This document shows, one piece after another, positions 4,606 through 22,785 of a DNA stretch of 64,000 nucleotides. The notes under the pieces are model-generated. The model did no database searches, was not told the DNA's origin, and was given only the letters and a program-made list of their open reading frames with translations. This DNA comes from Thermodesulfobacteriota bacterium. Lineage in GTDB: Bacteria; Desulfobacterota_D; UBA1144; Nemesobacterales; UBA2774. Location of the stretch: assembly GCA_965216785.1 (NCBI GenBank), contig OZ244197.1:1504001-1568000 (forward strand), read 5' to 3'. Each line of letters starts with the position of its first letter. Within the stretch, counting starts at the first letter, position 1. The position numbers and the translations under genes were made by a program.

Positions 4606-7600
4606 ATGGATGATCATATAGGTTCAGCAAAAACCGATTCAGAAAGTGAGGTTAAGGATAAATCCTCACAATCCAAAGACACAACAGAGCAAAAGCAAAA
4701 CACCCGGAATAACGGCGATATTAATGCTCAGCAAAATGCTCAAGACGAGCTTATGAAAAGTAAGAACCGCCTCGAGCTAATGAGTAATATTGCCTCTGAA
4801 TTTAATTCTCACGCTACCTTGGACTCGATAATCGAGAACGCGGTCCGGAAAATAAGCGAGTTTTTCAAGGATTTCCGAATAGTTTATTCAACTATAGATA
4901 GTAAGGGGCTTATGAAATGCAAGATCTCCAGCCAGCCCGAGAGTATGGGTAGTGTAGAGGGTCTTGAAGTAGACCTGTCCGCCGAGCCCGGGTACTTACA
5001 TGCCCTTGGTGCCAAAGGTGTGCTAGTCTCTGAGGATATTACTAAAGATGAAAGATTCAGCGCTTTTAAGGAAAAGCTTTTGAGCATTAAAGCAAGAGCT
5101 CTGGTGGATGTGCCCGTATTCGATTCAAGCGGCCTGGCTGGACTTGTATGTATCGATTCTCCCGAGCCGTATAAATGGTCCGAATACGAGATTAAGACCT
5201 TAAAGGAAGCTTCCGCAAATCTGGGTCTTGCCATCAAAAAAGCCCAAATCGAACAAGAGAGAAAGGAATACGAAAATTCCTTAAACAGAACTCTCCAAAA
5301 CTTATCGCGGAAGAATACATATGAATCAATTATTAGCTCTGTCACAAGATCCGTACATCAATCTATAAATGTCCAAGAAGTTTTCGAGCACGCACTTGAT
5401 TCCATGATTAAGAATATAAAAGGCGCGAAAAACATTTCTATTTATATGGTTGAGGATAAAGATGCGGTTCTTAGAGCTTACAGAGGATACGTTGGGAAAC
5501 ATATTGAAAGGATAAGGAGAATTCCATATCCGCACGGTTCAACCTGGAAGACCATTATCGAAGGCTCGCCCAGATATGTTCCGGACGTTGAGGCTGATGA
5601 CGTACTCGGTCAGGCAGGTAGAGATTTGGGAATTCAATGCTACATAGCCATGCCTATTAAATCTGAGGGTGAATCTGTAGGGTGTATACATATAGTTTCA
5701 TTTGATAAGGACCAATTTAGCAAGGAAGAATTCTCATTACTCGAGAAGGTAGTTCAGCAGTTGGAAGCCGCAATCAAAAACGCTAGACAGGCTGAAGTCC
5801 TTCGCCAGTCTGAAGAACGCTACCGCGCCTTATTCGACCAATCCCCCGTAGGGGTATATATATTCGATACCGATTTTAAGATTACAAACTGTAACAAACG
5901 TATGGAGGAGATTCTTGATACTCCTTATGAACATATAGTTGGGATAGACATTAGCACATTTAAAAACACTCGTATATTTTCACTTATAAAAGAAGTACTT
6001 AATGGACAGCCAGGCATGTATGAAGGGTTTTGCGAAGTATCGAGCGGGCCGGTTAGGCCGTATGTATGTATCAGACTCACGCCACTCAGAGATGAAAAGC
6101 AAAACGTAGTCGGCGGCATGGCAGTGATTGAGGATATAACAGAGCGAAGACTTGCCGAAGAGAAGCTGTCTATCCAGGAAAAGCGCATTCGGTCTCTCTA
6201 TGAAATTTCTGCTGAGCCAGGGTTCGGTATTGACCAGCAGATAATACAGACCCTAAAAACGGGCTGTGACATGCTCGGATTAGACATAGGTATAATCGGT
6301 CATGTTGTAGATAAAGTTTATACGGTGCTTTATTGCTTTGATCAGTCAAATACTATTACTCAGGGGCTTAAATTCAATTTAGACATAACTTACTGCAGTA
6401 TTACACTTGCCGAAAATGACGTCGTAGCTATGGATCATGTGAAGATCTCGGAATATAGAAACCATTCTTGCTATAAGGAATTTAAGCTCGAAACCTATAT
6501 TGGGGTTCCTCTAAGTGTTAAAGGTGAGATATTCGGGACTATAAATTTCTCGAGTCCGCAGCCCAGAGAGATACCGTTTAGCAATTCTGATAAAGAATTT
6601 ATTAGACTGATGGGTAGATGGGTCAGCACAATGATCGAACGGAAGCAGACCGAAGTCATGTTGAAAGACAAGGAAGAGCTGTACAGGACTCTAGTTGAAA
6701 ACGCTCACGATCTTATTATAGAGACAAAGATCGACGGGACTGTTGTTTATATGAATTCGAACCACAAGTACCTCCTTGGTTATGATAAACCGGATCTAAT
6801 GGGAAAAACGGTATTTGACTATATCCACGAGGACGATCGCAGGCCTGTGACATCTGAGTTCATGAGGGCTATAATGTCCGATAGCGCGGCGCATTCAGTC
6901 TTCCGGTTTAAGCATAATAACGGCGAGTGGCGCTGGCTTGAGAGCACGGGAAAGTCTTTTAAAACATCAGACGGTGAGCGACGCTGGGTTATCGATTCAA
7001 GGGATATAACTCAGCGCAAAAAGACCGAGGAGCAGATCCGGAAATCGCTCAAGGAGAAGGAATCGCTCCTTCGCGAGATACACCACAGGGTGAAGAACAA
7101 TCTTCAGGTTATATCGAGCCTCCTGAGTCTTCAGTCCGATTATTCAAAAGGCGTAGATTCCTCAAGGCTATTTGAGGAGAGTCAGAACCGAATTTCCGCA
7201 ATAGCGCTAATACACGAGCAGCTATACCAGTCAGAAGACCTTGCTGAGATTGATATGGGGGAGTATATAGCCGATTTAGCTGACAACCTGCTAACGGTTT
7301 ACGGGGATGAAGGCAGTAACGTCAGCGTGGAGTTCAACACTAATGATTTGAGTGTTGACATAGACACGGCCATACCTTGCGGGCTGATTATCAACGAGCT
7401 GTTTTCTAACTGCCTTAAGCATGCTTTTAAATACTGCGGAAAAGATGGTAACAAAAAAGAGGGACTGATAAGCGTAGGGTTTAATTCTTCTACAGAGGGT
7501 CAATATATATTAAGTGTTGCGGATAACGGGTGCGGGCTGCCTCCCGGATTGGATTTCAGGGAGACCGAAACACTCGGTCTTCAGCTTGTCTGTACCCTTA

Positions 7601-7686
7601 CGGATCAGCTACATGGAGACATAGAGCTAAGTGCCGGTAAAGGGGCAAAATTTGATATAAGGTTTCCCAACCAGGTGCGTAGTTAA
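4606..7686 (+). CDS. cytoplasmic GAF/PAS multi-sensor histidine kinase (HisKA_2 type)
   Basis: GAF-GAF-PAS-GAF-PAS, then EIHHRVKNNLQ H-box, NELFSN, DNG.G, LGL boxes; no obvious TM segment. Confidence 0.9.
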   Translation: MDDHIGSAKTDSESEVKDKSSQSKDTTEQKQNTRNNGDINAQQNAQDELMKSKNRLELMSNIASEFNSHATLDSIIENAVRKISEFFKDFRIVYSTIDSKGLMKCKISSQPESMGSVEGLEVDLSAEPGYLHALGAKGVLVSEDITKDERFSAFKEKLLSIKARALVDVPVFDSSGLAGLVCIDSPEPYKWSEYEIKTLKEASANLGLAIKKAQIEQERKEYENSLNRTLQNLSRKNTYESIISSVTRSVHQSINVQEVFEHALDSMIKNIKGAKNISIYMVEDKDAVLRAYRGYVGKHIERIRRIPYPHGSTWKTIIEGSPRYVPDVEADDVLGQAGRDLGIQCYIAMPIKSEGESVGCIHIVSFDKDQFSKEEFSLLEKVVQQLEAAIKNARQAEVLRQSEERYRALFDQSPVGVYIFDTDFKITNCNKRMEEILDTPYEHIVGIDISTFKNTRIFSLIKEVLNGQPGMYEGFCEVSSGPVRPYVCIRLTPLRDEKQNVVGGMAVIEDITERRLAEEKLSIQEKRIRSLYEISAEPGFGIDQQIIQTLKTGCDMLGLDIGIIGHVVDKVYTVLYCFDQSNTITQGLKFNLDITYCSITLAENDVVAMDHVKISEYRNHSCYKEFKLETYIGVPLSVKGEIFGTINFSSPQPREIPFSNSDKEFIRLMGRWVSTMIERKQTEVMLKDKEELYRTLVENAHDLIIETKIDGTVVYMNSNHKYLLGYDKPDLMGKTVFDYIHEDDRRPVTSEFMRAIMSDSAAHSVFRFKHNNGEWRWLESTGKSFKTSDGERRWVIDSRDITQRKKTEEQIRKSLKEKESLLREIHHRVKNNLQVISSLLSLQSDYSKGVDSSRLFEESQNRISAIALIHEQLYQSEDLAEIDMGEYIADLADNLLTVYGDEGSNVSVEFNTNDLSVDIDTAIPCGLIINELFSNCLKHAFKYCGKDGNKKEGLISVGFNSSTEGQYILSVADNGCGLPPGLDFRETETLGLQLVCTLTDQLHGDIELSAGKGAKFDIRFPNQVRS
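7023..7406 (+). repeat. 384-bp direct repeat, copy 1 (kinase DHp and start of HATPase)
   Basis: read base by base against 8825-9208: identical except A7342 vs G9144. Confidence 0.95.
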
Positions 7687-9488
7687 TGAGTGTATCTAAT
7701 CCGGAGTCGTTTACAGAAAGTCTCGAAAATTACAGGGAAATATTTCAGAATTTAAATGTTATGGTCACCATTCATGACGAACATGGTGATATAGCTGTCG
7801 TAAATAAAAGGGTTGTTGATTTTCTTGGATATGCCGAAGACGAGATGCTTTCAGTAAGCATTACCGATATGACTACTGCAGAATCTCACCCCTCGTTTTT
7901 AGAACTACTCGAAACTACAATACGAAGTGGTTCATCAACAAAGGAAGTATCTTTCAGAAAGAAAAACGGTGATGTGATCCCCGCAAAAGTGTCTTCAAAT
8001 CTGATTCGGATAAATGGCGAGAAATATATTCTGAGCGTAATGGATGAGGTGACAGAGCTCAAGGAAGTGGAAAAGGAGCTCACGGAAAAAAACCTGTTTA
8101 TCGACTCCATCATTGAGAATATTCCTAACACGATTTTCGTAAAAGATGCGAAAGAGCTTAGGTTTGTGAGGTTTAATAAGGCAGGGGAAGAGCTTCTCGG
8201 ATACTCGAGGAGTGAAATGCTGGGCAAGAACGACTACGACTTTTTCCCCGGAGAAGAAGCCGATTTTTTCACAAATAAAGATAGGGCTGTTCTAAATAGC
8301 AAAGAACTTTTAGATATATCGGAAGAGCAAATACACACAAAAAATATGGGTGTAAGGACGCTTCATACAAAAAAAATCACTATTAACGACGAACATGGGA
8401 ACCCAAAGTATCTCTTAGGAATTTCAGAGGATATTACTGAGCGCAAGAAAGCAGAGGATATGCTCCGGGAAAATGAGGAGTACTATCGTTCAGTAGTTGA
8501 AAATGCTCATGATCTCATAATAGAAACCAATAACTCTGGAACATTTATATATGTGAGTCCCAACCACAAGACTGTCTTAGGGTATGAACCTCAAGAGCTA
8601 GTAGGTACAAGCATTTTTAAAAACATTCATCCCGATGATGTAAAAGATGTTGTTTCAAAATTTTCACAAGCTGTTGTTAGTCAATCTAATGGCCACGGTA
8701 TTTTCAGGTACAGGCATAGTAGTGGTGAATGGAGGTGGTTTGAGACTAACGGCAGGCCCATTAATACTCCTTCTGGTCAGGTGAGGATCATCTTACATTC
8801 CCGCGACATAACAGAGCGTGTGAGGACCGAGGAGCAGATCCGGAAATCGCTCAAGGAGAAGGAATCGCTCCTTCGCGAGATACACCACAGGGTGAAGAAC
8901 AATCTTCAGGTTATATCGAGCCTCCTGAGTCTTCAGTCCGATTATTCAAAAGGCGTAGATTCCTCAAGGCTATTTGAGGAGAGTCAGAACCGAATTTCCG
9001 CAATAGCGCTAATACACGAGCAGCTATACCAGTCAGAAGACCTTGCTGAGATTGATATGGGGGAGTATATAGCCGATTTAGCTGACAACCTGCTAACGGT
9101 TTACGGGGATGAAGGCAGTAACGTCAGCGTGGAGTTCAACACTGATGATTTGAGTGTTGACATAGACACGGCCATACCTTGCGGGCTGATTATCAACGAG
9201 CTGTTTTCCAATTGTTTGAAGCACGCATTTACTCCGGTGATTTCTGGTACAACAAACGGAACTATAAAAAATCTAATATCCGTAGGATTCAGATCCGAGG
9301 CTAGTGGTGAACTTGTTCTCTCGGTGAAAGACAACGGCGTAGGACTTCCGGAGGGACTTGATTATAAAAATACCGAGTCCCTTGGTCTTCAGCTTGTTTG
9401 TACGCTTACAGATCAGCTCGGTGGTAGTATAGAAGTTAAGAACGGGGTTGGATGTGAATTCAGAATCACTTTCCCCTCTGAGGTTTGA
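7686..9488 (+). CDS. PAS-PAS-PAS histidine kinase (HisKA_2 type)
   Basis: three PAS/PAC repeats (DITERK-type linkers) plus EIHHRVKNNLQ and HATPase; start overlaps upstream stop (TAATG). Confidence 0.9.
   Translation: MSVSNPESFTESLENYREIFQNLNVMVTIHDEHGDIAVVNKRVVDFLGYAEDEMLSVSITDMTTAESHPSFLELLETTIRSGSSTKEVSFRKKNGDVIPAKVSSNLIRINGEKYILSVMDEVTELKEVEKELTEKNLFIDSIIENIPNTIFVKDAKELRFVRFNKAGEELLGYSRSEMLGKNDYDFFPGEEADFFTNKDRAVLNSKELLDISEEQIHTKNMGVRTLHTKKITINDEHGNPKYLLGISEDITERKKAEDMLRENEEYYRSVVENAHDLIIETNNSGTFIYVSPNHKTVLGYEPQELVGTSIFKNIHPDDVKDVVSKFSQAVVSQSNGHGIFRYRHSSGEWRWFETNGRPINTPSGQVRIILHSRDITERVRTEEQIRKSLKEKESLLREIHHRVKNNLQVISSLLSLQSDYSKGVDSSRLFEESQNRISAIALIHEQLYQSEDLAEIDMGEYIADLADNLLTVYGDEGSNVSVEFNTDDLSVDIDTAIPCGLIINELFSNCLKHAFTPVISGTTNGTIKNLISVGFRSEASGELVLSVKDNGVGLPEGLDYKNTESLGLQLVCTLTDQLGGSIEVKNGVGCEFRITFPSEV
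8825..9208 (+). repeat. 384-bp direct repeat, copy 2
   Basis: 383/384 identical to 7023-7406, offset 1802 bp. Confidence 0.95.
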
Positions 9489-14539: not shown

Positions 14540-14845
14540 CTAAGACGCTTTTTTTTGAGCAGGACCGGCAAAGTGACGGTCGCGTATAGGGTCGTTGTCG
14601 AGATCTGAGATCAGATATCCGATCCGGTATTGATCTCCCGGGAAATAGTAGAGCCGTATACCCTGGGGCGTGAGTAGATACAGCCCGTCTTTTTTGGTGT
14701 CATCGGGCAATTCTACTTCATATATAGGGAAGCCGACGGTGCCGCCCCCGATATTTATCTGACGTCTCTCATTTCTTAATTTTTTTATGTTTTTCGCAAT
14801 ACCCCAGACCTTGGGGAAGATCTGGCCGTTTACAGTTATTTTCAT
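14540..14845 (-). CDS. hypothetical protein
   Basis: 101 aa ORF with GAGGT SD; no recognised motif. Confidence 0.65.
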   Translation of the reverse strand: MKITVNGQIFPKVWGIAKNIKKLRNERRQINIGGGTVGFPIYEVELPDDTKKDGLYLLTPQGIRLYYFPGDQYRIGYLISDLDNDPIRDRHFAGPAQKKAS

Positions 14846-14872
14846 TACTTACCTCGTTAAGATGATGTGTTA

Positions 14873-15235
14873 TTAGGCTGATATCTTGATTTCTGTAATA
14901 AGCCCCGTGCAGGTGATTATTTTATCTAAATTTTCGTTCCTGGGATATAAATAGCGGTGCTCGGGTTTTTCTCCGCAACTGCGGCAAACTTCCTCCTCCT
15001 CTGATATATCAACCCAGATTGCGCAAGCGCCGCAGTAATCTCCCATCTCCTCATACCAGGCTAAATGAGAATACAAGAGCTCATTCAATCCTCTCTTGCC
15101 CAGGGTGGAAGCCCACTCAGTCAGGTCCTGGGTAATTCTCTCTCTGAATTTAGGCGGAACCTCAGACAGGTCGCCCGAATAGATTTGGTCTTGGTTAACA
15201 TAAATTTTACAGCTAAAAGACTTTTCGCCTGTCAT
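14873..15235 (-). CDS. hypothetical protein with zinc-ribbon-like CxxC...CxxC
   Basis: YCGAC...VCRSCG in a 120 aa ORF. Confidence 0.65.
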   Translation of the reverse strand: MTGEKSFSCKIYVNQDQIYSGDLSEVPPKFRERITQDLTEWASTLGKRGLNELLYSHLAWYEEMGDYCGACAIWVDISEEEEVCRSCGEKPEHRYLYPRNENLDKIITCTGLITEIKISA

Positions 15236-15307: not shown

Positions 15308-17218
15308 TCAGTTGCTCATAGCCTCAGCGCCGAGCACGCTGGCCACAGCATCCTGTATCTGGTCCACTGAGAAGGGTTTCTTGATTATCTTGTACGAGCC
15401 TTCTGAAATCTCATCAGGAAGCTGTTCCTCTGAGCGTCCGCTTATAATTATCACAGTAGAGTTCGGGTCAATCGTTCCTATGTCTCTTAGTATTTCGACG
15501 CCGTCTTTTTTGGGCATCGAAAGGTCAAGGAATATAATGTCAAAATGGTTTTGCTTAATTAGCCCGAGAGCACTCTCACCGTTACCGGCTGTCATAACGT
15601 TGTGCCCCGTACTTGATAAACACTCCTTTATTATATCACGGATAAATTCTTCATCGTCCACGACAAGTATGTTCCCCTTTCTTCTAAGCTCCAGCACCTT
15701 CGCGCTCTCGACTTTTTGTCCTGTTTTAGTGCTGACGCTTTTGCTTAGAGTCTGCACATTTGGCAGGAGTATGGTGAAAGTGGTTCCTTTGTCAATCTCG
15801 CTGCTCACGTCGATTCGTCCGCCGTGGCGCTCGATTATAGCATAAATTACGGACAGGCCGAGCCCCGTCCCTGATTTTGTGCCTTCACTGAACTTTGTGG
15901 TGAAAAACGGTTCGAAGATTCTGGGCAGATTCTCACTGGATATTCCGCTGCCTGTATCTGAGAAGTCGATCCTTACGTTATTGCCTTCTAGTTTTGTGCT
16001 TATAGCTATGGCGCCGCCGCCCGGCATGGCGTGTTTTGAGTTAATTGCTAGGTTCAGGAAAACCTGCTGCAGCTCGCCCAAATTCAGTCTGATAGCCGGC
16101 ACTTTTTCGTAGTTCCGGAGAATCTTGATTCCCTCTGTTTCAAATGTGTGCTCGACTAGGCTAAGTGCGTCGTCAATAACGTTCTCTATCTGAGCGACCT
16201 GGAACTTCTCGCCCTTTTGCCTTGAGAAGCTTAGGAGTTTATTCACTATTTCGACAGCCCTATCTGAGGCTTTTTCTATAACATCGAGGTCTTTTCTCAC
16301 CCCCTCCATGTTATCTCTTGTAATCGCGAGACTCGTGTAGCCGATTATTCCCGAGAGTATGTTGTTAAATTCGTGCGCGACGCCTGCCGCGAGCTGCCCG
16401 ACGCCGGACATCTTAGCCGAATGGATAAGCTGCGCCTCGAGTTTTTTCTTCTCTGTAATATCTTCGGTCGCTACGATAACGCCGAATATCTCTCCTGTCT
16501 CAAAATCCACTAGCGGAGAGAGAGATACCTCAAGGAATTCATCTCCCGACTTAAGCTCGTGCTTAGTGGAATAGGAGGCTTCGCTAAGTATCTTTGGAAT
16601 AATAGTCTCAAAATTTATACCGTCTAAGAGGTCGCTGAGTTTCTCGCCAATGCAGTCCTTTTTAAAAATCTCCTTTGTCTTTGGATTCGCGCTCTGTATA
16701 ACAAGGTTCCTGTCAGTAGTGATAATACTTTCAATCGTGCTGTTAAGAGTGTTCTCAAGCTGACGGTTTCTTTCTTTAACTTTTTGTTCAAGGTTTGTGT
16801 TTAGCTCTTTTAAGTCGCTTAAAAGTCCCGTGTTCTGTTTGTACAGGTCGTATCTTTCAACAGCGTGCTCTATGACGCTTTTGAGTTTGCTGTAATCAAG
16901 CGGTTTGATAAGGTAGTCAAAGGCGCCGTTCTGCACCGCTTCCACAGCTGTTTCAAGAGAGGCAAACCCGGTCATTAGGATTACCGGAATATGCGGGTCT
17001 TTGTTCCTTATTTCCTCAAGTAGGTCTATACCGCTTTTTTTAGGCATTCTAATGTCGGAAATCACAACATCAAAAGACTTAACCTTTAAGAACTCGATTG
17101 CCTTCTCGCAGTTATTAGCGGCTAGTACTTCATAGCCTTCCTTAGTTAGGATGTCGGCAATGATCTTCAGAATCAGATGTTCATCGTCAACGACTAATAC
17201 CCTTTTAGTGTTGTCCAT
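15308..17218 (-). CDS. hybrid response regulator/histidine kinase (REC-PAS-HisKA-HATPase-REC)
   Basis: N-terminal VDDE/SDIRMP/KP receiver, GVAHEFNNIL H-box, GTGLGL, C-terminal VDDE/LDLSMP/KKP receiver; ATG at 17218 after GGAGAGG. Confidence 0.92.
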   Translation of the reverse strand: MDNTKRVLVVDDEHLILKIIADILTKEGYEVLAANNCEKAIEFLKVKSFDVVISDIRMPKKSGIDLLEEIRNKDPHIPVILMTGFASLETAVEAVQNGAFDYLIKPLDYSKLKSVIEHAVERYDLYKQNTGLLSDLKELNTNLEQKVKERNRQLENTLNSTIESIITTDRNLVIQSANPKTKEIFKKDCIGEKLSDLLDGINFETIIPKILSEASYSTKHELKSGDEFLEVSLSPLVDFETGEIFGVIVATEDITEKKKLEAQLIHSAKMSGVGQLAAGVAHEFNNILSGIIGYTSLAITRDNMEGVRKDLDVIEKASDRAVEIVNKLLSFSRQKGEKFQVAQIENVIDDALSLVEHTFETEGIKILRNYEKVPAIRLNLGELQQVFLNLAINSKHAMPGGGAIAISTKLEGNNVRIDFSDTGSGISSENLPRIFEPFFTTKFSEGTKSGTGLGLSVIYAIIERHGGRIDVSSEIDKGTTFTILLPNVQTLSKSVSTKTGQKVESAKVLELRRKGNILVVDDEEFIRDIIKECLSSTGHNVMTAGNGESALGLIKQNHFDIIFLDLSMPKKDGVEILRDIGTIDPNSTVIIISGRSEEQLPDEISEGSYKIIKKPFSVDQIQDAVASVLGAEAMSN

Positions 17219-19739
17219 CTTCCTCTCCTTTAACGTCATTATTTTTATTGCTTGGGAGCTCTATTGTAAATACCGTGCCTTTCCCCTTTTCGCTCCGGAC
17301 GATTATCCTACCCTGGTGCTCTTCTATTATCTTATAGGCAATCGATAATCCGAGCCCTGTTCCCATGTCTTTCTTTGTGAAAAACGGGTCAAATATTTTG
17401 CTCAGGTCTTCCTCTTCTATACCCAAGCCCGTGTCTTTGAAGCTCACATATACATTTTCAGTTTCTTGGTTAATCAACATATTTTTTTCCCAACCGGTCT
17501 CTATCGTTAGGTCACCACCCTCGGGCATTGCCTGTATAGCGTTTACTATGATGTTAATAAACACCTGCCACAGCTGGTTAGAATCGGCCATTATGTCCGG
17601 TACGTCTTCTTTTAAATTCTTGATAAGGTTCACGTTGTTATCCGAGAGCTGTTTTCTAATTAGTACTACTACGTTATCAACTACGTTATTTACGTTTACC
17701 TTTTCAAAATGGGGCGGCTCTGCCTTTGAAAACTTAAGCAGGCTGTCGATAAGGGTGTTTGTTCTTTCTATTTCGTGCTTTATGTAATCCAGATACTCCC
17801 CGACTACTTCTTCGTTTTCATCGTTTGTCAGATAGGTGGAGAGGTAGTATCTCGCCCCCTCGATAATGTTGAGCGGATTGCGAATCTCGTGAGCCACTCC
17901 CGCGGCAAGCTGGCCGATGGCAGACATTTTTTCCGCATGAACCAATTGATCCTGAGTGTCTTTTAGCTCGGTGTTTGCAAGCTCGAGTTTTTTCGCATAG
18001 TCCTCGACAAGCTTGAATGCGAGCGCGTTTTCTACTGCGATTGCGCTCTGGTTTGCAAGCAAGCGGAGCAGCGTGATATCCATAGTCGTATAAGTGAGTC
18101 CCGATTTTTTATCTCCCAGAGCAATGAACCCGATCAGCTGCTTCTTAAAGAACAGCGGCATTATTAGAGAAGCGTCAAATCTCTTAAACTCGTTCATAAG
18201 CTCCTCTGATCGGTTTATGTATTTCTCGTCGGCTATGAGGTCTTCTTTGAATATCTCTTTTTTATACCTGTTGAAGCTCTCAACAAGAACGTTTGTGCTT
18301 TCTATATTTTTATTCCCTTGTATATCTGTATTATCGCTGCTGTAGTAAGCCTCATAGATCCCAGTGTCTTCGTTATAAATTGCGACAGTTACCGGGCTTG
18401 AGAACATAGTGCTCTCGATCACGCTGATGATCTTGTCTATGATCATATCTATACTCAGAAGAGAAGTCATAGCGTAGCTCACTTCCTCTACCGTTCTTCT
18501 GTAGTCATATTTCTTTCTAAAAAACGTTAGGTCCACAATTTCCTGTATACGGTTTTTAAGCGGATTAAGCGCAAGTACCAAGAAGCTGCTCATGATCAGG
18601 AAGAAAGCCGGGTTCTTCCAGCCGCCGTGCTGTGCGTAGGCCATGTTAAAGGTTAGGACCATAAGAGCGAACACTGCGCCCACTGTTCCGGTTAGCAGTC
18701 CGTAAGTGATCGTTTTCTGTATGATTACATCAATATCGAAGAGTTTATGCTTGACGATGGCATAACCAATCGATAGGGGAAACAGTATTACTGGCAGGGC
18801 CATTAAATTAAAAGGTATGTTTAACTTGAAAATTGTAATGCCTACAGCCGCCGCGGCGGGAATTATCAGACCCAGTAAGCAACCTAAGAAAATAATCTGA
18901 GCTCTTTGCTTCTCTAAGGATGATTGTGAACGAAGGAATGTGAATAAAGACGAAAGAGGGAATATTGCGGCGCTTAATAGTAGATATATCCAGATAGAAA
19001 TATAAAGGATTTTCCATGTGCTGTAGGAATCGAAGAAAATCATTATAAGAGCGTAGATAGCCAGTGATAATATTAGAAACGGCAGCGTTGCGAAGTATCG
19101 GGATTTTTCTTTTATCTTAGTATCCGAAGGGAAGATGAACATCAGGTAAATCCCAAACATAGGGCTGAAAATCATCGCGAAAAATGTAATTTTGTCAAAG
19201 TAGTATGTAGCCTGCGCGTCAAATGAACCCACAAACCATATGCCAAGCGCAGTGCAGAAGAGGAAAAACGCTTTACTGGCTAAATCATCGGGCTTTATGT
19301 AAATTACAAAAACGCCGATTGTAAAAAATACTACCCCGATTAGATAAATGACCCCGAAGACAAGAAGCAGGTCTTTAGCAGAGAGTTTCTGTACTGGTAT
19401 TGTAATGTCGAAGAAGCGGTTGTTTCTCTCGATCGTATAATCAACTTTTTCACCGACTGATAGCGTACCGATAATATTTTCAATATCCACAGGAGCGGAT
19501 ACTTCCTGACCGTTGATTAGTATTACTTTGTCACTGAACCTTTTTAGCTTATCGCCGTTTACGGTCGAGGGGGCGATATCAGTGATAACCAGGTTGTCGT
19601 AGAAGAAAAACCCCGGGTATGTTTTGTCTACCCACTTGAGCCCAAGTATGAAATTGGCTATACAAAAGCTAAGCAGCACTACTACTACGATGCCGAATAG
19701 GGGTCTAGAAAAATTTTCAGAATTCTGCTCGAACGTCAT
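17205..19739 (-). CDS. membrane sensor histidine kinase (PDZ-like periplasmic domain, multi-TM domain, GAF, HisKA, HATPase)
   Basis: TM1, PDZ-like VILINGQEV...GEKVDYTIER, about 8-9 further hydrophobic helices incl. YAIVKHKLFDID, GAF (LANQSAIAVENA), GVAHEIRNPL, GTGLGL. Confidence 0.9.
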   Translation of the reverse strand: MTFEQNSENFSRPLFGIVVVVLLSFCIANFILGLKWVDKTYPGFFFYDNLVITDIAPSTVNGDKLKRFSDKVILINGQEVSAPVDIENIIGTLSVGEKVDYTIERNNRFFDITIPVQKLSAKDLLLVFGVIYLIGVVFFTIGVFVIYIKPDDLASKAFFLFCTALGIWFVGSFDAQATYYFDKITFFAMIFSPMFGIYLMFIFPSDTKIKEKSRYFATLPFLILSLAIYALIMIFFDSYSTWKILYISIWIYLLLSAAIFPLSSLFTFLRSQSSLEKQRAQIIFLGCLLGLIIPAAAAVGITIFKLNIPFNLMALPVILFPLSIGYAIVKHKLFDIDVIIQKTITYGLLTGTVGAVFALMVLTFNMAYAQHGGWKNPAFFLIMSSFLVLALNPLKNRIQEIVDLTFFRKKYDYRRTVEEVSYAMTSLLSIDMIIDKIISVIESTMFSSPVTVAIYNEDTGIYEAYYSSDNTDIQGNKNIESTNVLVESFNRYKKEIFKEDLIADEKYINRSEELMNEFKRFDASLIMPLFFKKQLIGFIALGDKKSGLTYTTMDITLLRLLANQSAIAVENALAFKLVEDYAKKLELANTELKDTQDQLVHAEKMSAIGQLAAGVAHEIRNPLNIIEGARYYLSTYLTNDENEEVVGEYLDYIKHEIERTNTLIDSLLKFSKAEPPHFEKVNVNNVVDNVVVLIRKQLSDNNVNLIKNLKEDVPDIMADSNQLWQVFINIIVNAIQAMPEGGDLTIETGWEKNMLINQETENVYVSFKDTGLGIEEEDLSKIFDPFFTKKDMGTGLGLSIAYKIIEEHQGRIIVRSEKGKGTVFTIELPSNKNNDVKGEEDGQH

Positions 19740-19763
19740 TTTATTTTACTAACTGCTCCATTT

Positions 19764-22523
19764 TTAGCTAATAACCGGACTCTTGCTATAAATATCCCAG
19801 TCGGTATTAACCCTTGATCCTAATTTTTCGATAGCTCTTCTTGACGCTATGTTATCTTCCAAAATCCATGTCAATGCGGCCCTTTCGTATCCGTTATGTA
19901 TCATTGCTTCACATGCCCTGCCTAAAAGACAGGCTCCGAGCCCCTTTCCACGGAATGTCGGTGATGTACCGACAATAGTTACCGCTCCCTTGTGAATCTT
20001 TCTAAGCTCAAGCGGAATCTTGATAAGCTTGAGGAGTTTTGTCTCCCCCGCGAGATCTCTGAAGATGGCCGCATAGTCCGGGAACGCCCCTACAAACCCC
20101 ACGGGCTCGCCGCGCTGCTCCGCAATAAGCCAGAATTCGGGCTCAATCAGTGACTTGAAGTCCTCGGCGAACTCTAAGAGCTCTTCGTATTCAAGGGGGA
20201 CGTAACCCCATTGCTTGGCCAGTGAAGCATTGTACAGATCGGTGACAGTACGAACTTCCTCCGTCCACTTAGACTTATCGAGCGGTCTAATGCGGATATC
20301 GGACAAAGAGGGATTGTGAGCGTGTCCGTGTACAGTTTTGATATTCTCAGGAGATTTCAGGTCAAGTGTGTAATGCACAAGGTTTTTAATAGGCGTAAAT
20401 CCGGAGTTTTTGAAATACTCGTGGTAGTAGGGGTGAGTGTATATCTGGAGGAATGATGGTATGCCACCATAATTACTTGCAAGGAACCCTCCTCCGAACA
20501 GTCCGAACAGTCCGTTCACAGGGCCCCTTACTTCCTTACAGCCTTCAGAGTCCAAAAACTCACTTGCCTTTCCAAGTAGCAGCTCCACAGCCACACTTTT
20601 GTCGGGAAGCGCTTCAAAGAATCCTACAAATCCTGTTTTAGTATTGTGGTATCGGTTGAAATATTTGTCTACAAATGCGCTTACTGTGCCAACTAGCTTA
20701 CCATCTTCTTCAACGATGAACCTCTTGCCATAAACTTTTCTCTGGTAATAGTACTTGTTGCTGATTAGCTTTATCTGATCCTTGATTAGAAAATACGGTA
20801 CCCAGGCGGGGCAGTCTTTATAAACCTCCCAGGAAAATCTTACGGATTTTTCTATATCTTCTTTAGAGCTGATTTCTTTGACCGAGTATTTCTCTCCGTC
20901 CTCATAGTTAAATGTAAAGGGTTTATCTATAATCCCGTATTTTCTTCCCAACTTCTCAAATACTTCAAGAGTAGTATCCAAGTCTTCCTGAGTATGAGTG
21001 GCCATAACACTAACCCTGAAGCGCTCGTGTCCTTTGGGCACTGCCGGGTGAGGAATAGCGTTTGTGTATATGCCCTCTTCGTGCAAATTCCTGCTCATTT
21101 TTTTAAGGGTAAGCTCGTCACCAATCATGACGGGGATTATCGCGGTCTCGCTCTGCGCGGTATCAAACCCAAGGCTCTTAAGGTTTTCCCTCATATACCT
21201 TATGTTTCCCCAGAGGTTTTTATGGAGCTCTTTATCCGTTTGCATGACCTCTATGGCAGCAAGTGCCGAGGCTGCGACTGAAGGCGGGAAATTGGTGGAG
21301 AAGAAAAAAGAGCGCGTATAATATCTTAGGAAATTCACAACCTCTTTTGTTGAGGCTACGAACCCACCGACTGCCCCCAAAGACTTGCTGAGAGTGCCCA
21401 TGACGAGGTCGACTTCCCCGGGTTTCATTTGAAAGTAACTCGGTGTGCCGCTTCCCATCTCTCCGACGACGCCTGTTGCGTGTGCTTCATCGACCATTAT
21501 TTTGGCTCCGTACTCGTGAGCCACTTCCGTTAGCTGCGCCAGCGGAGCGATGTCTCCGTCCATACTGTAAACGCCGTCTATCAGTACAAGCTTGCCCTGG
21601 AAATTATCAATGTTTCTTTTTAGTACTCCCCTGAGGCTCTCTACGTCTGAGTGCTTGAATGTTCTGAAAGAGCCCGCGGAAAGAATGCAGCCGTCTATGA
21701 TGCTCGCGTGCGCGAGTCTGTCTATGGCTGCCAGGTCGCCGTTTCTTACCAGTGCTTGAATGCATCCGAGGTTTGTTACATACCCGCTAGGGAATACCAA
21801 AGCGTCTTCACAGCCTTTGAGCTCTGCAAGCCTCATCTCGAGCTTTCTGTGTATGTCGAATGAGCCTGCCAGAAGAGGTACCGAGCCCGCGCCGGCCCCG
21901 TATTTATCCATCATTTTCTGCGCGGCGCTGATGACTTTGGGATGGGCGGTCAGGCCTAGGTAATTGTTGCTGCCCATCATGACCATCTCTTTTTCTTCCC
22001 CGGTAAAATCATCCTCGATCATAACCCTGTTAGAGGACATGGACGTAAGCGGTCTTCTGTATCTGATATAGCCCTTCTCCGTCATATCGGTGCGATACTC
22101 CCAGAACACGTCTGCTTTCTTAAAAATGTCGGGGTCCGGATAGTCAGGGAAATCGGCTAGAGAGTAGTTGTCGGAATTGAGCTTGTTAGAGCCTGACTGA
22201 AGATATTTTTTTATTTTAGATCTGTCGGATTTGGAAATATTTACAAACTTAATACCGAGTCCAATCTGCTCTGAATCGCTCTTTACGGAGTGCACAGCTT
22301 CACAATATACTTTAACAGGGAAAGAGGATTCAGAGAGGTCCAGCTCTAAAAAGAGTTTAGAGCCCGGCTTATAGAGCTCTTGGGTCTCAACAAACATCCC
22401 GTCTTCCGATAGGTCTGTTGCGATACCAAAAACTGTGCCGCTTCCCCGAAGCAGTACCTTGAAGCTTGCATGAGTTCTTTCGAATCTCCTGCGCTCGCCG
22501 CTTTTTTCAATTAAAATACCCAC
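19764..22523 (-). CDS. PilZ + PLP alpha-oxoamine synthase (SPT/BioF/Kbl/CqsA family) + YghO/bCerS-like GNAT fusion protein
   Basis: R12xxxR16 and D37xS39xxG42 PilZ motifs; GSNNYLGL, HASIIDG, VYSMDG, DEAH, GTLSK(380); C-terminal WVP, GFVGFFE, RGPVN, PYY, FRGKGLG, WILEDN; GTG start with GGAGG SD. Confidence 0.88.
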   Translation of the reverse strand: MGILIEKSGERRRFERTHASFKVLLRGSGTVFGIATDLSEDGMFVETQELYKPGSKLFLELDLSESSFPVKVYCEAVHSVKSDSEQIGLGIKFVNISKSDRSKIKKYLQSGSNKLNSDNYSLADFPDYPDPDIFKKADVFWEYRTDMTEKGYIRYRRPLTSMSSNRVMIEDDFTGEEKEMVMMGSNNYLGLTAHPKVISAAQKMMDKYGAGAGSVPLLAGSFDIHRKLEMRLAELKGCEDALVFPSGYVTNLGCIQALVRNGDLAAIDRLAHASIIDGCILSAGSFRTFKHSDVESLRGVLKRNIDNFQGKLVLIDGVYSMDGDIAPLAQLTEVAHEYGAKIMVDEAHATGVVGEMGSGTPSYFQMKPGEVDLVMGTLSKSLGAVGGFVASTKEVVNFLRYYTRSFFFSTNFPPSVAASALAAIEVMQTDKELHKNLWGNIRYMRENLKSLGFDTAQSETAIIPVMIGDELTLKKMSRNLHEEGIYTNAIPHPAVPKGHERFRVSVMATHTQEDLDTTLEVFEKLGRKYGIIDKPFTFNYEDGEKYSVKEISSKEDIEKSVRFSWEVYKDCPAWVPYFLIKDQIKLISNKYYYQRKVYGKRFIVEEDGKLVGTVSAFVDKYFNRYHNTKTGFVGFFEALPDKSVAVELLLGKASEFLDSEGCKEVRGPVNGLFGLFGGGFLASNYGGIPSFLQIYTHPYYHEYFKNSGFTPIKNLVHYTLDLKSPENIKTVHGHAHNPSLSDIRIRPLDKSKWTEEVRTVTDLYNASLAKQWGYVPLEYEELLEFAEDFKSLIEPEFWLIAEQRGEPVGFVGAFPDYAAIFRDLAGETKLLKLIKIPLELRKIHKGAVTIVGTSPTFRGKGLGACLLGRACEAMIHNGYERAALTWILEDNIASRRAIEKLGSRVNTDWDIYSKSPVIS

Positions 22524-22640
22524 AAGCGATCCTCCAAAAAAGCCGTCAACTTTTAGGGTCTTCTTTAATATACTTAATAAACTTCTTGATGCCTAGGCGA
22601 TAATTATCCTATAATATTGAATAAAATGCAAGCGGTTCGC

Positions 22641-22740
22641 TCTTCGGTAGCCCAACTACCATAGGCGAAAAATAATTTCGCCCTTAGGCTTGAAGCTTTG
22701 CGTCCTATCTTTTCAGATAGTTTGCCGTTTCGGAATGACC
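22641..22740 (-). promoter_or_regulatory. cyclic di-GMP-I (GEMM-I) riboswitch
   Basis: minus strand reads GGCAAAC-TATCT-GAAA-AGATAG-GACGCAAAGC-TTCAAGCCTAAGGGCGAAA...TTTCGCCTATGGTAGTTGGGCTACCG: GNRA-capped P2, GACGCAAAGC junction, CTAA/TATGG tetraloop-receptor-like element in P3, terminal ACCG. Confidence 0.92.
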
Positions 22741-22756
22741 TCATGACCCACTATAA

Positions 22757-22785
22757 AGTTTAGTGCAACTTTTAAATACGCGCAA
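22757..22785 (-). promoter_or_regulatory. sigma70-type promoter upstream of the riboswitch
   Basis: TTGCGC-N17-TAAACT about 15 nt above the aptamer 5' end. Confidence 0.55.

Follow-up and report, generated by a model that had tools for sequence, protein, structure and literature searches.

Joint exchange of an oxoamine synthase and a kinase sensor half marks a likely new cell-to-cell signalling system, with predicted c-di-GMP control, in uncultured Dadabacteria

The window, a stretch of 64,000 nucleotides from a genome of the Dadabacteria phylum, carries on its minus strand a compact one-directional array of a promoter-like site and riboswitch, a PilZ-AOS-GNAT fusion enzyme and two histidine kinases (HK1, HK2). 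This arrangement, with a gap of 24 nt followed by an overlap, was the starting claim of the original prediction, and ORF, Pfam and RF01051 searches found it present and intact. The 24 nt separate the synthase from HK1, while HK1 and HK2 overlap by 35 nt counted from the first ATG of HK2 or by 14 nt counted from the ATG at 17218, which is preceded by a purine-rich RBS-like stretch. The locus proteins retain their H-boxes, REC aspartate motifs and PLP lysine. The features are as follows:

22757-22785, minus strand: predicted sigma70-like promoter (-35 at 22785-22780, 17-nt spacer, -10 at 22762-22757)
22643-22736, minus strand: c-di-GMP-I (GEMM-I) riboswitch aptamer (RF01051, 81 bits vs a cut-off of 35)
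22524-22642, minus strand: AT-rich leader of 119 nt, 3' of the aptamer, conserved in family f1
19764-22523, minus strand: PilZ-AOS-GNAT fusion ORF, 919 aa, predicted signal synthase
22197-22496, minus strand: PilZ domain with RxxxR and DxSxxG motifs (Pfam)
20919-22178, minus strand: PLP alpha-oxoamine synthase (AOS) domain of a PigH-containing clade
19779-20906, minus strand: YghO-like GNAT, predicted N-acyltransferase, C-terminal 384 aa of the fusion
17205-19739, minus strand: HK1 ORF (PDZ/TM/GAF kinase), 844 aa
18783-19739, minus strand: HK1 residues 1-319, the variable part (TM1, extracytoplasmic PDZ-like domain, TM2 to mid-TM8)
17205-18782, minus strand: HK1 residues 320-844 (TM8-10, GAF, HisKA, HATPase), tracking the host lineage
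15308-17239, minus strand: HK2 ORF (REC-PAS-HisKA-HATPase-REC hybrid), 643 aa, likely start 17218
14540-15235, minus strand: two small ORFs of 120 and 101 aa, no known family, 3' of the kinases

No DNA-binding regulator was found in the locus. The 120-aa ORF shows a weak zinc-ribbon match, and both small ORFs trail the kinases in most related Dadabacteria loci, including those with an orphan HK1. Elsewhere in the window, tandem PAS/HisKA_2 kinases (4606-7686 and 7686-9488) have a common 435-nt stretch with 95.6% identity, indicating a recent duplication or gene conversion.

Hexamers and spacing of the promoter are conserved in 10 out of 11 aligned upstream regions; a consensus promoter scan did not list the -35/-10 pair at 22785-22757. 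In GEMM-I aptamers, G20 is associated with specificity for c-di-GMP and A20 with specificity for cGAMP, as given in excerpts of PMC6140456. The locus aptamer keeps G20, A47, and C92 and is thus of the c-di-GMP type; a cGAMP-type riboswitch is ruled out by G20 in the window aptamer as well as in its aligned homologues. The 119-nt leader contains no clear intrinsic terminator, and folding of this region yielded no consistent expression platform. Conserved AT-rich motifs occur in the leader and its homologues, among them, for most relatives though not for the window, what may be a second promoter of the extended -10 kind. Genome-wide, seven c-di-GMP-I riboswitches, the locus aptamer among them, and four GGDEF matches were detected. 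The other six aptamers (G000:C1 231122, 985665, 1671427, 1802318, 2805880, and 3113739) are followed by a pilM-like type IV pilus operon, by large proteins that look secreted and by an ORF of 2822 aa (labels assigned by eye), i.e., a regulon of the surface/adhesion type.

Pfam resolves the fusion into PilZ (residues 10-109), Aminotran_1_2 (179-521), and Acetyltransf_1 (781-902) domains. Its AlphaFold model reached a mean pLDDT of 84, and a Foldseek search with the full model returned only AOS structures among the matches listed. Both PilZ motifs, RxxxR and [DN]xSxxG, are kept in 27 of 29 aligned rows (duplicate rows included); RxxxR and DxSxxG being the c-di-GMP motifs of PilZ, the domain is a candidate c-di-GMP binder. 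A 139-aa ORF at G000:C1:703983-704402, absent from the matches of the PF07238 genome search, has PilZ-like motifs as well.

In the AOS domain, the residues H272, D345, H348, K380, and R503 are all present, and V215 aligns with V79 of ThAOS, thus showing Val instead of the Ser102 of Spt. Excerpts of PMC11906848 describe V79 as a determinant of amino-acid selectivity, a position occupied by Val in Kbl and by Ser in Spt, and report that wild-type ThAOS accepts Gly, Ala, Ser, and Aba, from which we infer a small amino acid as substrate. The domain scored below every NCBIfam cut-off (BioF 399 of 426 bits, Spt-CFB NF047600 373 of 640, CqsA-type NF005526 194.6 of 428), and CqsA was among the weaker AOS matches in the PDB (E 2e-34 vs 4e-87 for the best). 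In trees that took in E. coli Spt, Kbl and BioF, Spt-type proteins of Pedobacter and plasmid homologues, the AOS fell into a clade with the PigH-position genes of prodigiosin-type clusters (SH-aLRT 97-98), separate from the Spt clade (support 99-100). Forcing the window AOS together with Spt was rejected (AU p=0.00096). A constraint uniting PigH and Spt was not rejected (AU p 0.3), leaving the deep branching order unsure. Membership in the Spt/ceramide synthase group is consequently rejected by the tree, the AU test and the Val at the selectivity position. A role as BioF is unlikely, considering that the other AOS of the genome groups with E. coli BioF/Kbl and adjoins a BioA-like gene (assigned by eye). 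Related AOS proteins of other phyla (P0060, P0073, P0075, P0076-P0118) carry PilZ, REC, FAAL-ACP or FemAB-like domains, and the PilZ-AOS fusions among other phyla form a second, separate clade.

The GNAT domain was predicted to be YghO-like, which is borne out by 22% identity (E 2e-30) to YghO of E. coli BL21 and 27% identity to the gene beside Pedobacter spt. YghO, which we take to be the bCerS orthologue, lies in BL21 next to spt, ACP, FAAL, and epimerase genes, a context fitting this assumption. In the Caulobacter model, as far as excerpts of PMC11087976 present it, bCerS acylates the amino-ketone 3-ketosphinganine before its reduction. Based on this order and on the YghO-like GNAT, an N-acyl amino-ketone is the likeliest product predicted from the domain content: the AOS would couple acyl-CoA or acyl-ACP with Gly, Ala or Ser as the small amino acid, and the GNAT would acylate the amine to give an N-acylated amino-ketone lipid. 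This agrees with the product proposed in the original prediction, whose wording “oxidised-ceramide-like” holds only as a loose analogy, given that the AOS is not Spt and has Val at the selectivity position. A true ceramide is unlikely in view of an AOS that is neither Spt nor CqsA but part of the PigH-containing clade. Fusions of Spt-like and YghO domains exist as well (P0069-P0072); the PilZ-AOS-GNAT fusion arose separately from them.

The nearest cultured homologues, the PigH-position genes, share 40-44% identity with the AOS including an N-terminal extension. Their PigH label rests on gene order and on neighbors annotated PigD and RedY, the name itself being in part our assumption. The window protein differs from them in lacking an ACP domain and a pig cluster and in its selectivity loop (GCR vs SVP). 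This kinship would suit an antagonistic metabolite of a PigH-like secondary metabolism, sensed by HK1 to trigger self-protection, all the more as killer/immunity pairs also form swappable cassettes. However, tblastn found no PigD, PigF or PigM match in the genome and only partial or generic matches to the other pig genes, i.e., no prodigiosin pathway, and the window locus holds no exporter, transporter or resistance gene, leaving this explanation highly improbable in our view.

The source names of close homologues read Candidatus Dadabacteria. Extension of the analysis to 120 genomes of the Dadabacteria phylum revealed synthases in 38 of them (36 at E<=1e-101, plus two with partial copies) and sensor matches in 42, of which 40 were of the orthologue type and two only a paralogue with 24-25% identity. 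The prediction that synthase homologues are syntenic with the kinases held throughout: HK1 lies directly downstream of the synthase in 37 of the 38 synthase-bearing genomes from six families, always within ~3.5 kb and on the same strand, and in the 38th (G026) the contig ends at the synthase, so that every synthase with downstream DNA is followed by HK1 (37/37). Kin genomes are not independent in this count, family f1 sharing a whole conserved neighborhood; the synthase-kinase module is embedded in unrelated flanks in G036, G045, G046, G050, G027, and G028. In four of these (G036, G045, G046, G050) it lies among REC-HD and GGDEF-type genes, a hint of feedback on c-di-GMP.

HK1 was found without a detected synthase in three genomes, namely G034 (74% complete), G052 (contig starting inside HK1), and G040, and orphan copies without an adjacent synthase occur in G028 (second copy), G034, L165, L167, and L168. 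In G040 (L048:7972-9084), the first ~37 AOS residues are fused to a Methyltransf_20-like methyltransferase, with the riboswitch kept. This family has PilZ- and cNMP-fused members, and the G040 enzyme may resemble the signal synthase PhcB; no protein named PhcB was found in the plasmids, the Atlas or the searched papers.

The slot between AOS and HK1 is variable. It is occupied by a fused GNAT in f1, G041, G047, G049, and G050, a free YghO in G051, an OleD-like reductase in G045 and G028, a zinc dehydrogenase in G046, and a methyltransferase in G044 and G054, and it is empty in G036, G038, G048, and G058. The GNAT is thus one of several interchangeable tailoring genes, and relatives would reduce, oxidise or methylate the product instead, giving rise to different specificity groups. 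In loci without a fused GNAT (L042, L043, L044, L045, L144, L145, L146, L147, and L149), a gene for a TIGR04551-like putative outer-membrane protein adjoins the AOS and might serve to import or export the product.

With respect to the receptor side, Pfam recognizes GAF, HisKA, and HATPase domains in HK1 and the series REC, PAS, HisKA, HATPase, and REC in HK2, the predicted relay partner of HK1. The GAF/kinase core of HK1 thus agrees with the original prediction; the PDZ domain claimed along with it gives a weak PDZ_2 match in the window (E 0.089) and a clearer one in orthologues. Residues 1-413 match only PDZ-protease models in NCBIfam, and the AlphaFold model of residues 1-420 (pLDDT 88) comprises ten long helices, the first of them followed by a beta domain, in agreement with hydropathy. 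The sensor module is widespread (5109 clusters at E<=1e-10, part of GAF being included in this number) and also drives RsbU, cyclase or kinase outputs. A metagenome scan covering 27 of 64 parts led to 80 loci being examined. Among the 14 closest, nine have a synthase directly upstream, three are orphans after aroC, and two come without upstream DNA. The 66 distant ones include 20 with an Lnt-like N-acyltransferase gene, in 11 cases confirmed by Pfam as the upstream neighbor, spread over at least two deep groups and with catalytic-type motifs in 10 of the 11. These pairings (L172, L173, L175, L178, L179, L182, L185, L188, L196, L199, L228, and nine more of L171-L236), whose sensors carry RsbU or kinase outputs, possibly represent a separate undescribed module; they could fit a sensor for N-acylated lipids, a housekeeping lnt being possible as well. 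Among 80 AOS loci from a scan that covered 3 of the 64 parts into which the genome collection is divided, the sensor was encountered only at the Dadabacteria locus, and none of the Spt+YghO loci in this sample carried it. In L052, L053, and L156, a PDZ-TM sensor kinase that is a paralogue (24-27% identity) adjoins a dnaE-like gene, with no synthase nearby.

A rival reading is that the product is a membrane-resident ceramide-like or amino-lipid which HK1 monitors in the cell's own envelope or on contact as a self/kin check, no diffusible autoinducer being involved. YghO-like GNATs adjoin spt in ceramide loci, bCerS acylates 3-ketosphinganine in the model cited above, the sensor is predicted to be mostly intramembrane with its ten helices, and distant sensors pair with Lnt-like genes. 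We nevertheless consider this rather unlikely: the AOS falls outside the Spt clade, the locus contains no CerR, ACP or FAAL gene (the best CerR match in the genome, with 27.5% identity, lies away from it), and a structural role gives no clear reason for the frequent replacement of tailoring genes between congeners.

The strongest link between the enzymes and the sensor emerged from comparison of closely related genomes. In four independent within-genus swaps, the enzyme or enzymes and HK1 residues 1-319 were exchanged together, with the break at the same motif; HK1 1-319 is only 31-46% identical across these swaps, in contrast to 85-91% for the remainder of HK1 and 87-95% for HK2. Domain-by-domain comparison identified G095 as a mosaic. 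It groups with G005, G047, G049, and G050 in the trees of AOS, GNAT, and sensor alike (support 99/100/100), the five genomes coming from five genera in two families, whereas they scatter by host lineage in the HK1-cytoplasmic and HK2 trees (AU p 1e-40 and 1e-36; groups named after the domain comparison had been seen). Sliding windows place the breakpoint at HK1 residue 320: G095 and G022 are 20-40% identical before and 65-100% after this position. The same break separates G046 from G036/G045 (sensor 45-46%, with a different tailoring gene and an AOS that is unchanged at 90-93%), G038 from G054 (AOS 48%, sensor 36%), and G040 from G051 (sensor 44%). DNA alignments show the same swap edges as the protein comparison, and a breakpoint common to four different assemblies makes misassembly unlikely.

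Across all 33 congeneric pairs, HK1 residues 320-835 are 85-98% identical. Sensor identity drops to 31-46% in 10 pairs, representing the four events G095, G046, G038/G054, and G040/G051, and the enzymes changed in all 10; in the remaining 23 pairs it ranges from 60 to 93%. The pair G006/G011 is a milder case along this trend (AOS 96, GNAT 76, sensor 60, C-part 98% identity). For every segment preceding HK1 residue 320, similarity is lower between groups I and II than within them, with no such gap after it, and the groups also differ at AOS active-site loop residues. With HK2 held constant, AOS divergence correlates with that of the sensor (partial r 0.68) and hardly with that of the HK1 C-part (0.13; 325 non-independent pairs).

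This co-swap supports the pairing of signal and receptor put forward in the original prediction, though the physical adjacency of the enzyme genes and the sensor half allows one recombination tract to carry both without a functional link, so that linkage alone could also give the pattern. Enzymes and kinases might then be merely co-regulated c-di-GMP targets, jointly exchanged by hitch-hiking under selection on one part. The riboswitch was found in 24 related loci, in every case upstream of the HK1 position and in five of them 3' of the AOS, between AOS and HK1; in contrast to the order given in the original prediction, its constant position is thus the one upstream of the kinases. The orphan HK1 copies likewise suit hitch-hiking, as does the pair G036/G045, in which sensors are 92% identical and only G045 has the in-locus reductase. 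Yet HK1 follows every synthase with downstream DNA, group II alleles of enzyme and sensor stay together across genera over 51-63% sensor divergence, and a deep sensor swap that left the enzymes unchanged was seen in none of the 33 congeneric pairs, making hitch-hiking an improbable account of the whole.

We thus favor the reading that the locus encodes a signal synthase and the membrane receptor cognate to it, with a probability of roughly 0.6. Counting against this pairing are the orphan HK1s, the wide distribution of the sensor module, the G036/G045 exception, and 10 other synthase- or HK1-bearing loci, some truncated upstream, in which the search found no riboswitch. In addition, a lipid carrying two acyl chains might fail to diffuse, and the window locus encodes no exporter. 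The co-exchange of synthase and sensor likely marks a new cell-to-cell signalling system in uncultured Dadabacteria, for which c-di-GMP control is predicted. In such a system, c-di-GMP would affect expression via the riboswitch and the enzyme itself via PilZ. HK1 residues 1-319 would recognize the product of their own group, phosphate would pass from HK1 to the first REC domain of HK2, and the output would lie outside the locus, possibly in c-di-GMP turnover enzymes.

In the alpha-hydroxyketone quorum-sensing systems CqsA/CqsS of Vibrio and LqsA/LqsS, the gene for a PLP alpha-oxoamine synthase adjoins that for a multi-TM histidine kinase, and it is the linkage of an AOS gene to a membrane histidine kinase in 37 of 38 genomes which the Dadabacteria share with them. 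Apart from the failed CqsA-type cut-off, the present locus differs by its PilZ and GNAT domains, riboswitch, PDZ-10TM-GAF sensor, second hybrid kinase and variable tailoring genes. The ceramide pathway of Spt, bCerS, and CerR shares the combination of AOS and YghO-like GNAT, and is set apart by the clade, the selectivity residue and the pathway genes missing from the locus, as described above. A variable block bounded by conserved sequence and extending from the gene that makes the signal into the 5' region of the receptor kinase is reminiscent of agr (Staphylococcus) and ComQXP (Bacillus); excerpts of PMC3673130 and PMC4408185 describe, respectively, the agr hypervariable region from 3' agrB to 5' agrC and the comQXP polymorphism. 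Here, a predicted enzymatic, lipid-like metabolite of a diderm would take the place of a ribosomal peptide, a synthase-HK1 gap of only 24 nt not matching the peptide signal of such a cassette, and no homology is claimed. By analogy, the locus would work like CqsA/CqsS with agr-like specificity groups, outside the CqsA, Spt, and PigH systems. The open literature searched, to which most subscription papers do not belong, contained no description of this combination, and excerpts of PMC11334938 mention neither Dadabacteria nor such fusions.

More tentatively, and with odds somewhat short of even, the products may be c-di-GMP-gated N-acyl amino-ketone autoinducers re-tailored into strain-specific types, with the PDZ-10TM family acting as a general receptor for N-acylated lipids across phyla, an extension suggested by its pairing with Lnt-like acyltransferases elsewhere. 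A signal-receptor pair at this locus would, if true, constitute a signalling chemistry not described in the searched papers, in an uncultured and widespread phylum, and would put signal production downstream of c-di-GMP at both the RNA and the protein level. The window locus versus G095 or G005 would supply natural cognate and non-cognate pairs. The system would further extend agr-like specificity groups to a non-peptide signal, receptor residues 1-319 being the region to which specificity maps, and provide the first ligand hypothesis for a large orphan family of membrane sensors.
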